From: Escherichia coli
Lineage (GTDB): Bacteria > Pseudomonadota > Gammaproteobacteria > Enterobacterales > Enterobacteriaceae
Direction: 5' to 3' (one strand)
NCBI RefSeq assembly: GCF_044324785.1
Contig: NZ_CP172127.1
DNA: 64,000 bases
Below are positions 19,201 to 22,200 of this stretch, one piece after another (position 1 is the first letter of the stretch; each line of letters starts with the position of its first letter). A program made the position numbers and the translations under genes. The notes under the pieces were generated by a model. That model was not told where the DNA came from, did not search any database, and was given only the letters and a program-made list of their open reading frames with translations.

Positions 19201-22200
19201 CGGCGAAACGCTGAGGGTTACCTGATGCAGGGGTACACCATTGCCGTAATTATCATTCACCGTAATGTACAGAGTGGTATCCTCGCCTGCCAATTGTGTG
19301 TCATAAAGGGTATAAAGCGAGGTGAGATGCGCCGTAGACGCATCAGCGTCGACTTGAATGGACGTGCTAAGCGTGGAGCTACCATTTTCCAGGCTAGCTT
19401 CAACGGTATCTGGTCTCGCTCCTGTTTCTCTCGAGGAGCGGGTATTGGTATAAGTGACGGTAGCTTTACCCTGTTCGTTCGTCACGGCTTGGCCGCCGTT
19501 CGTCATTTCGGCAGATTTTGTTCTGCTGGTAAAGCTCACAGTCACACCTTTTACCGGAAAGCCATTATTATCAACGACTGTGGCGGTAATGACGCTGCCG
19601 GAGCTATTCTGCGGGGTACCGGCGATTATGCGGTCTGGCACAGCCGTCAACTCGATAATTTTTGCCGCCGCTGTGTCGCCAATAAAATGCACAGTTTTGT
19701 TGTCGCTGGCACCATTATTAGCCAGTGATGCAGTGACCGTCTGCTCACCAAAGGCAACGCCTGCGAGAGTGGCCTGCGCGATGCCAGACTCATTGGTATT
19801 ACTCACTCCCGGGGTCAGGGTGAGTCCTGAAGAGGCTGAGCTGAATGTTACCGGAAGATTGTTCACCTCATTGTCGAACTGATCTTTAACCGTTGCAGTT
19901 AGCGTTGCGTTATCGACGCCATTACCTGTGATCTCATCTTTTGACATCTGCAGGACAACCTGAGCCGAGGTTTTGTCCGCCACAAACGTTACCGGCTGCG
20001 AATCACTGGTATTGTTATTACCCAGCGTTGCGGTAACCGTATGCGTGCCCGCTTTTTTACCTTTGAGCGTGACATGCGCTTCCCCATTGGCCTGGGTAAT
20101 GGCAATGCCGTTATTTTCAAGGGTAAAGTTTGCTGCCACGTCCTGTGGCATGGTGAAGTTTACCGTTATCCCCGCCACAGGATGATTCGACGGATCTTTC
20201 ACCATCGCTGTAAGCTGCACGCTGTCACTGTTATTCGTCACCACCTGTTGAGCAGGGATATTCAGCGTGACCTGCGCGTTGCTGGCATCGGGCGCAATAT
20301 TGACTGTCGTCGAATAGCCATTGCCGTTAAGCAGCGTGGCTTCGACTGTATGAACACCCAAAACCGTGCCCTTAAGGGTAACTTCAGCAACACCACTGTC
20401 GTTAGTATTGCTTGTGCTCTGACTAAGTTGAGTATCTGCCGGGTTGGTACTGAAGGTGACCGGTAGATCTTTTACTACGTTATCAAAAGGATCTTTTACT
20501 GTTGCTGTCAGCGTCGTCTCATCCACGCCATTCCCAATGATTTCCGCTTTCGATGTTTGCAGAACGACAACTGCGCTGTCCTTATCCGCCACGAATGTGA
20601 CTGGTTGCGCATCGCTGGCATTATTGTTACCCAGCGTTGCGGTAACCGTATGCGTGCCCGCTTTTTTGCCTTTGAGGGTGATATGCGCTTCGCCATTGGC
20701 CTGGGTGATGGCAATGCCGTTATTTTCGAGGGTAAAGTTTGCCGCAACGTCCTGTTGCATGGTGAAGTTTACCGTTATTCCCGCCACAGGATGATTCGAC
20801 GGATCTTTCACCGTTGCCGTCAGCTGCACGCTGTCGCTGTTATTCGTCACCACCTGTTGAGCAGGGATATTCAGCGTGACCTGCGCGTTGCTGGCATCGG
20901 GCGCAATATTGACTGTCGTCGTATAGCCATTGCCGTTAAGCAGTGTGGCTTCGACTGTATGAACACCCAAAACCATGCCCTTAAGGGTAACTTCAGCAAC
21001 ACCACTGTCGTTAGTATTGCTCGTGCTCTGACTAAGTTGAGTATCAGCCGGGTTAGTACTGAAGGTGACCGGTAGATCTTTTACTACGTTATCAAAAGGA
21101 TCTTTCACTGTTGCTGTCAGCGTCGTCTCATCCACGCCATTCCCAATGATTTCCGCTTTCGATGTTTGCAGAACGACAACTGCGCTGTCCTTATCCGCCA
21201 CGAATGTGACTGGCTGCGCATCGCTGGCATTATTGTTACCCAGCGTTGCGGTAACCGTATGCGTGCCCGCTTTTTTGCCTTTGAGGGTGACATGCGCTTC
21301 GCCATTGGCCTGAGTGATGGCAATACCGTTATTTTCGAGGGTAAAGTTTGCCGCAACGTCCTGTGGCATGGTGAAGTTCACCGTTATTCCCGCCACAGGA
21401 TGATTCGACGGATCTTTCACCGTTGCCGTAAGCTGCACGCTGTCACTGTTATTCGTCACCACCTGTTGAGCAGGGATATTCAGCGTGACCTGCGCGTTGC
21501 TGGCATCGGGCGCAATATTGACTGTCTTCGTATCGTTGTTGCCGTTAGGCAGTGTGGCTTCGGCTGTATGAACACCCAAAACCGTGCCCTTAAGGGTAAC
21601 TTCAGCAATACCGTTCTCATTAGTATTACGCGCGTTCAGGCTCAGTTGTGTGTCTGCGGGGGAGGTGCTGAAGGCTACTGACAGATGTTTAACCACGTTA
21701 TCAAAAGGATCTTTCACTGTTGCTGTCAGCGTCGTCTCATCCACGCCATTCCCAATGATTTCCGCTTTCGATGTTTGCAGAACGACAACCGCTCTGTCTT
21801 TATCCGCCACAAACGCCATTGGCTGAGCATCGCTGACATTGCTGTTAGCCAGACGAGCCGTGATCATATGCGTGCCCGCTAACGTGCCGGTCAGGGAGGC
21901 GATGGCAATCCCGTTGCTATCCGTCATGCCTTTTCCGCTGTTGCTAATCGAGAACTGACTTGCGACGTCGTTTGGCACAGAGAAAATGATTTCTTTATCT
22001 TTTAGTGGGTTGCCATTTTTATCCTGCAAGGTTGCCGTCAGCTGTTGAGGCGCTGTGTCGGTGACGGTGATCTCGCCTGAGGGCACACGGAGGGTCAGGG
22101 CAGCAGTACTTTGATCACCGATAAAATTCACCTGTTGATTAGCCTGGGAACCAGAGCTCACAGAGGCCGTAACCGTATAATCACCATTTTTCAAACTGGT

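Follow-up and report, generated by a model that had tools for sequence, protein, structure and literature searches.

A three-unit array of paired immunoglobulin-like domains in the stalk of an Escherichia coli YeeJ adhesin as one allele of a copy-number series

The yeeJ gene and its product

We analysed a 64,000-nt stretch of Escherichia coli DNA (NCBI RefSeq assembly GCF_044324785.1, contig NZ_CP172127.1), hereafter called the window, which carries on its minus strand an 8616-bp yeeJ gene whose product contains a tandem array of paired immunoglobulin (Ig)-like domains in its stalk (Table 1). The gene is E. coli yeeJ, encoding a type Ve inverse autotransporter adhesin, as established by its Pfam matches, by synteny with K-12 and by the RefSeq names of its homologues. 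Experiments have shown that K-12 YeeJ is exposed at the cell surface, binds peptidoglycan via its LysM domain and promotes biofilm formation when expressed (PMC5595812).

The predicted protein matches the Pfam inverse autotransporter beta-barrel model IAT_beta over nearly its full length (E value 4.7e-113, model positions 2–279 of 279), followed by 18 Big_1 and 19 Invasin_D3 stretches and, near the C-terminus and just upstream of the tip, an Invasin_D4 match (E value 1.4e-06). Internal BLAST comparison places the Ig-like domains between approximately aa 740 and 2563. A Pfam LysM match at residues 78–99 is weak (E value 0.052, 14 bits against a cut-off of 20.9); this region is 95 % identical to that of K-12, and the N-terminal 900 aa as a whole display 92–100 % identity to K-12. 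No NCBIfam model, the intimin and IatC models included, scored above its cut-off for YeeJ.

Where translation starts is ambiguous. The mechanically called open reading frame (ORF; 16300–24990) opens at a TTG at 24990, and public annotations begin either at the ATG at 24915 (2871 aa, MATKKR) or at an ATG nine codons upstream (2880 aa), both forms being abundant in the protein database. RefSeq homologues are annotated from the ATG equivalent to window position 24915 (MATKKR...), and residues are numbered from that codon here.

Table 1. Features in and around yeeJ, in window coordinates; those of the array anatomy were confirmed by translation.
Feature	Coordinates	Strand	Basis and remarks
yeeJ coding sequence	16300..24915	-	ATG at 24915, stop 16300-16302; 2871 aa; ORF list, Pfam, RefSeq homologues
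IAT_beta inverse autotransporter beta-barrel	23659..24486	-	Pfam; residues 144-419 from ATG (ORF residues 169-444)
B', older diverged B-like Big_1 upstream of array	21799..22110	-	42 % aa identity to B
Tandem array, three 609-bp units	19972..21840	-	Offset identity, repeat finding, domain search
Unit 0 (u0), comparison register	21232-21840	-	
Unit 1 (u1), comparison register	20623-21231	-	
Unit 2 (u2), comparison register	20014-20622	-	
Big_1 A of unit 0 (A0)	21505..21798	-	Alpha type; 82 % identical to A1
LTATVKDP motif of A0	21706..21729	-	CTGACAGCAACAGTGAAAGATCCT; left end of K-12-type fusion
Big_1 B of unit 0 (B0)	21190..21504	-	Pfam, BLAST
Big_1 A of unit 1 (A1)	20896..21189	-	Beta type, resembles A2
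Big_1 B of unit 1 (B1)	20581..20895	-	3' half of chimeric middle unit
Big_1 A of unit 2 (A2)	20287..20580	-	Beta type
Big_1 B of unit 2 (B2)	19972..20286	-	Pfam, BLAST
LTAMVKDP motif of B2	20191..20214	-	Right end of K-12-type fusion
A', older diverged A-like Big_1 downstream of array	19675..19968	-	55 % aa identity to A
C-terminal tip region	16303..16701	-	Diverged from K-12 and O157; without Pfam match
Terminator-like hairpin	16254..16279	-	Just past yeeJ stop codon; consensus match only
tRNA-Asn	25228..25303	-	Upstream of yeeJ; K-12 neighbour too
shiA	13034-14350		
mtfA	25404-26240		

A 609-bp tandem array of double Big_1 units

Self-comparison across yeeJ revealed a 609-bp periodicity, with an identity of 0.398 at offset 609, 0.351 at 1218 and 0.303 at 1827 against approximately 0.29 elsewhere, and repeat finding returned three copies at spacings of 609 and 609. 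The top-scoring segment at offset 609 (19976–21231, 93.2 % identity) delimits an array at 19976–21840, equivalent to 3.06 copies. Tandem Repeats Finder returned nothing in 14000–26000 because the longest period that it can search is 500. At the protein level the period is 203 residues, and three 203-aa units, arranged in-frame and head-to-tail at exactly 609 bp without disturbing the reading frame, can be read directly from the translation.

Each unit comprises two Pfam Big_1 domains, A and B. The A copies (aa 1040–1137, 1243–1340 and 1446–1543) display 82, 100 and 98 % identity to the BLAST reference copy and the B copies (aa 1138–1242, 1341–1445 and 1544–1648) 98, 100 and 95 %, while A and B domains are 38–40 % identical to each other. 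As the array is flanked by the diverged B' and A' domains, it is embedded in an older, decayed A/B alternation.

An earlier note on this DNA had described a near-perfect expansion of about three 203-aa double Big-domain copies at 19900–21650. The period, the copy number and the domain content stand, as does the placement, save that the array reaches about 21840; the description as near-perfect does not, since the units are 89.5–95.9 % identical in DNA and the longest identical run between any two of them is 107 bp. Units 1 and 2 differ at 25 of 609 nt (95.9 % DNA identity) and at 5 of 203 aa, so that the note's 'few residues' is apt for this pair; unit 0, however, differs from unit 1 at 53 nt (91.3 %) and 23 aa, and from unit 2 at 64 nt (89.5 %) and 22 aa.

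Synonymous divergence (dS) between units is 0.15–0.33, with a ratio of nonsynonymous to synonymous divergence (dN/dS) of 0.07–0.27 (Nei–Gojobori), and for the B domain alone the ratio falls to 0.02–0.12. These values identify the copies as old and under purifying selection, and the protein-level similarity of the units is therefore due largely to purifying selection on old copies and not to very recent duplication. The two-unit alpha-beta arrangement is likewise old (dS between the first and last unit of approximately 0.3).

Three plus-strand ORFs (20041–20466, 20557–21075 and 21166–21681; 141–172 aa) lie antisense to yeeJ and recur with the 609-bp period. They were rejected as genes, since their recurrence follows that of the array and they overlap a conserved minus-strand frame under purifying selection; most likely, they are stop-free frames copied along with the repeat.

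Copy-number classes among complete genomes

Comparison of yeeJ length across strains, which the earlier note had proposed, revealed four length classes among 5,426 complete E. coli genomes, and its expectation of recombinational length variation was borne out both by these classes (0.5, 1, 2 and 3 units) and by chimeric middle units that bear the mark of unequal recombination. The class counts were derived from the geometry of BLAST matches in partial listings and are to be read as lower bounds: about 1,650 genomes carry 0.5 unit (2358 aa; K-12), at least 30 carry one unit (2457 aa; C-SRM-3), about 1,170 carry two units (2660 or 2666 aa; O157:H7 and CAVP814) and at least 28 carry three units (2863, 2870 or 2871 aa; the window and strain N3). 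The window array is thus one allele of a copy-number series present in complete genomes.

The array region was matched in 2,920 of these genomes, and the 0.5-unit allele is the commonest class among them (about 1,650/2,920). At least 80 % of the 3-unit query was covered in 1,198 genomes, at least 28 of which are colinear with it over all 3,001 bp, equivalent to three units; the other matches listed span 609 bp less, corresponding to two units. A synthetic 1-unit query found a colinear match in C-SRM-3 (2457 aa); with that allele as the query, at least 80 % was covered in 1,676 genomes, at least 30 of them with colinear 1-unit alleles and the remainder of the K-12 type. The 0.5- and 2-unit counts are these coverage totals less the colinear 1-unit and 3-unit genomes. 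A synthetic 4-unit query returned no colinear match among the 5,426 genomes.

Protein alignment agrees with this series: the window and N3 each have three units, O157:H7 and CAVP814 each have two, and K-12 has half of one. Lengths rise in steps of 203 aa, through 2457, 2660 and 2863 aa on the K-12-type C-terminal tip and through 2666 and 2870–2871 aa on the window-type tip, and the best 120 matches of a protein-database search displayed 2-copy and 3-copy lengths only.

We rejected a phase-variable contingency locus: the 609-bp unit is a multiple of three and every length class is in frame, so that copy changes in multiples of 609 bp would keep the reading frame. No short-period tandem repeat of the kind expected for a phase-variation tract was found in 14000–26000.

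Only approximately 29 % of yeeJ is left in about 2,270 of the 5,426 complete genomes, ST131-type strains and Nissle among them. In some genomes the gene is interrupted by IS3 and IS66 insertions, NCTC9040 and DS26-1 being among the degraded examples.

Chimeric middle units and probable unequal recombination

In the window, domain A of the middle unit resembles that of the downstream unit and domain B that of the upstream unit. This is reflected in the domain-wise dS values, which are 0.076 for A1–A2 against 0.33 for A0–A1, and 0.082 for B0–B1 against 0.26 for B1–B2. We modelled the middle unit of nine 3-unit alleles as a chimera of u2 then u0, as the reverse, or as a copy of a single parent. 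For the window, the u2-then-u0 chimera left 15 mismatches against 25 for the best single parent (breakpoint at unit nt 307–413); for N3, 8 against 18 (nt 51–68); and for NCTC9038, 0 against 22 (nt 232–266). Other breakpoints fell at unit nt 232–277 (GF60), 357–416 (LH50c), 357–575 (G1/2), 417–485 (PCN033) and 564–605 (1190). The reverse order brought no gain in 8/9 alleles and saved one mismatch in VCSW7 (18 versus 19).

We consider it very probable that the window carries an intact yeeJ whose stalk array, (Big_1 A + Big_1 B) x 3, is one copy-number allele and that its third unit was acquired by unequal homologous recombination. The third unit would be the product of recombination between misaligned 609-bp units: a crossover between two misaligned 2-unit arrays would yield a middle unit in which downstream-unit sequence makes up the 5' part and upstream-unit sequence the 3' part. 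Such recombination would have occurred independently in other lineages, at different breakpoints, and also toward loss, giving 1-unit alleles. In the K-12 allele, a further deletion at LTATVKDP would have left an N-terminal portion of A running into a C-terminal portion of B.

Two features of the chimera test weigh against this reading. The fit for the window is imperfect, its 15 residual mismatches calling for gene conversion or for a crossover between non-identical alleles, and VCSW7 has no breakpoint, a u2-then-u0 chimera being no better there than a copy of a single unit. Later gene conversion or allelic exchange may account for the residual mismatches.

The same features, together with others, would fit a single ancient 2-to-3 expansion followed by inter-unit gene conversion and allelic recombination, with the window strain having inherited or imported a 3-copy allele. 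The alpha-beta-beta order is common to 8/9 of the 3-copy alleles (the window and seven others); a table of variable sites reveals blocks at unit nt 146–236 and 272–309 that are shuffled among units and strains in the manner of conversion tracts; chimera fits leave 13–19 mismatches in several alleles, besides the missing breakpoint in VCSW7; and differences between the window and N3 increase toward the tRNA-Asn side, suggesting allelic recombination within the gene. However, the middle unit of NCTC9038 is matched without a single mismatch by a chimera of its two neighbours, which points to a very recent, local unequal crossover; N3 has the order alpha-alpha-beta and a breakpoint at nt 51–68; the breakpoint intervals differ between alleles (51–68, 232–277, 307–416, 417–485 and 564–605); 3-copy arrays are present on both C-terminal tip classes; and a 1-copy allele occurs in E700025, whose flank matches the 3-copy group. 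We therefore regard a single expansion as unlikely. Breakpoints, dS values, shuffled blocks, unit orders and the occurrence of 3-unit arrays on both tip classes together indicate several independent recombination events.

The yeeJ gene of NCTC9038 is annotated as frameshifted.

The K-12 allele as a fusion of A and B domains

The earlier note had also taken this YeeJ to be longer than the K-12 protein. This is so for length (2871 aa against 2358 aa in MG1655, an excess equal to 2.5 units), but the difference is not one of pure expansion, since the K-12 allele itself appears to be a deletion derivative. As far as LTATVKDP, the single K-12 domain (residues ~1035–1135) aligns colinearly with A; past that motif it does so with B. 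In its DNA the bases are of A type up to GTGAAAGATCC and of B type beyond, and at a shift of exactly 297 nt it is 93.9 % identical to B. The point of crossover falls within 11 identical nt of the LTATVKDP motif common to both domains, and deleting the 1515 bp between the A0 and B2 motifs of the window would produce the domain arrangement of K-12. The most plausible reading of the K-12 allele is a deletion by which two Ig domains were joined at corresponding positions, so that it is the most reduced form of the gene and not its baseline.

The opposite polarity, in which a short ancestor resembling K-12 gained foreign or duplicated DNA to give the long alleles, follows the published description of an 'additional 906-bp fragment' of repeated sequence also present in MG1655 (PMC5595812), and would suit the short allele being the commonest class. 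However, as A and B are only approximately 40 % identical, duplication of the K-12 hybrid domain cannot have produced them. The colinearity of the K-12 domain with A and then B, with its switch of bases, and the flanking B' and A' domains, which carry on the A/B alternation, also run counter to an insertion, which we hold to be very improbable.

Support for the assembled copy number

Adhesin genes are known to be misassembled on account of their tandem repeats (PMC6714894), and the earlier note had raised the worry of assembly collapse. A collapsed or mis-joined array with a true copy number other than three might also be suspected from a comparison with N3, the closest complete genome: the first 16.3 kb of the window (1–16300) are 100 % identical to N3, yet 73 of the 114 differences within yeeJ fall in units 1 and 2, against one in unit 0 and seven in the 3.7 kb downstream of the array. 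These differences could be due to intragenic conversion, to allelic recombination or to an error in one of the two assemblies.

Several observations speak against such a collapse. The units are distinguishable, differing at 25–64 of 609 positions with a longest identical run that is shorter than a common read length; an independent draft contig (GCA_044688705.1) shares 14.6 kb around yeeJ at 100 % identity; and the exact 2871-aa protein is found on 107 public contigs, the longest of 5.48 Mb. The same protein (P0007) is indexed in 103 blocks of the contig collection, mostly contigs of 20–50 kb. In addition, the reading frame is intact and the colinear 3-unit arrays noted above recur in at least 28 complete genomes. 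An assembly artefact is thus unlikely as the source of the three-unit array, to the point that we give it almost no weight.

A second C-terminal tip class

The last approximately 1,000 residues of the window YeeJ (16303–18900) display 60–83 % aa identity to K-12 and O157, falling to 28–30 % over the last 60 aa, although the motifs EWGDMGHY and YWSS are retained. The last 133 aa, where a C-type-lectin-like tip would be expected, returned no Pfam match. By the sequence of its C-terminal part, the window YeeJ belongs to a second allele class, and either tip class is freely combined with 2-unit as well as 3-unit arrays. For function, having a different binding tip may be more important than the number of repeats.

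Relation to known adhesins and significance

YeeJ is reminiscent of intimin and invasin in its IAT_beta barrel and Big_1/Invasin_D3 stalk and, presumably, in a LysM-like N-terminus and a C-terminal binding tip. Intimin and invasin have far fewer Ig domains than YeeJ, and we know of no Tir-like receptor for YeeJ. Among solved structures, the repeat unit comes closest in sequence to an intimin fragment (6TPL, E value 7.8e-06).

Two length variants of yeeJ, represented by MG1655 and UMN026, have been described, with no difference between them in biofilm assays; the longer contains an extra 906 bp 'made up of a repeated section' and encoding three Big domains (PMC5595812). The window gene corresponds to the UMN026/O157 gene of that study (Martinez-Gil et al. 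2017, PMC5595812) in identity, in its tRNA-Asn locus and in its repeated region; at 7983 bp and 2660 aa, the UMN026/O157 variant represents the 2-unit allele. Unlike either published variant, the window allele has a third unit (8616 bp, 2871 aa) and the other C-terminal tip class; 1-unit alleles (2457 aa) likewise lie beyond the two variants, and the MG1655 form is read here as a fusion deletion. Our literature search found no paper on 1-unit or 3-unit yeeJ classes, on a fusion origin of the K-12 allele or on chimeric units. The alleles themselves can already be found, generically named, in public databases.

Two themes are established here: the misassembly of adhesin genes through their repeats, and tandem near-identical Ig domains in inverse autotransporters (PMC6714894). 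In Yersinia ruckeri, the type Ve proteins YrInv and YrIlm (Wrobel et al. 2018, as cited in PMC6714894) are described there as carrying tandem near-identical Ig domains, taken as a sign of recent duplication. Besides belonging to another species and gene, they differ, on that account, from the array reported here, in which the unit is a two-domain module whose copies share 89–96 % DNA identity. The E. coli adhesins UpaH and Ag43 resemble yeeJ in their large in-frame repeats, strain variants and risk of misassembly (PMC5595812, PMC6714894); however, they are type Va proteins with beta-helix repeats, and functional differences between variants have been reported for them and not for YeeJ.

Judged from the domain architecture, each additional unit would add two rigid Ig-like domains to the stalk and move the tip further from the outer membrane, and stalk length might in turn affect adhesion. 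The only published functional comparison (0.5 versus 2 units), in which biofilm formation did not differ (PMC5595812), speaks against a role for length, and an effect of length is only something that we infer. It is doubtful that copy number is tuned by selection through recurrent unequal crossover so that the tip clears the O-antigen or capsule, with the conserved B domain (dN/dS 0.02–0.12) having a binding role of its own; were length so tuned, copy number would be expected to correlate with surface-polysaccharide type or host.

The three-unit array is an ordinary member of a length polymorphism that was already known for yeeJ, and our understanding of inverse autotransporters is unchanged by it. 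Its value lies mostly in annotation and typing, with at least four yeeJ length classes against two in the literature. As the K-12 reference is the most reduced, hybrid-domain allele, yeeJ calls based on it misjudge longer alleles: K-12-based gene models, polymerase chain reaction screens and presence/absence or genome-wide association calls will mis-score them or map array reads ambiguously. The locus is also a clean natural example of unequal crossover, with readable breakpoints and an in-frame domain fusion at a conserved Ig motif, and these breakpoints and the fusion could serve protein engineering with YeeJ as a display scaffold.

Neighbouring genes

yeeJ is accompanied by shiA, a gene for a family-9 glycosyltransferase (GT9), tRNA-Asn, mtfA and tRNA-Ser, in the same order as in K-12 MG1655. 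The GT9 gene (14602–15666, plus strand) is an intact 354-aa ORF in the window and is annotated as intact in N3, LH50-c, NCTC9038 and C-SRM-3, while in K-12 MG1655, O157:H7, CAVP814 and G1/2 it is annotated as a pseudogene with an internal stop or a truncation.

A tyrosine-integrase gene (26470–27498, minus strand) lies directly after tRNA-Ser (26295–26384) and is followed by phage-like genes, among them a replicative helicase and many hypotheticals according to the annotations of matching genomes. At least 80 % of window 25000–45000 was covered in only 7 of the 5,426 complete genomes, N3 not being among them. The region 26295–45000 probably represents an element that has integrated at tRNA-Ser.

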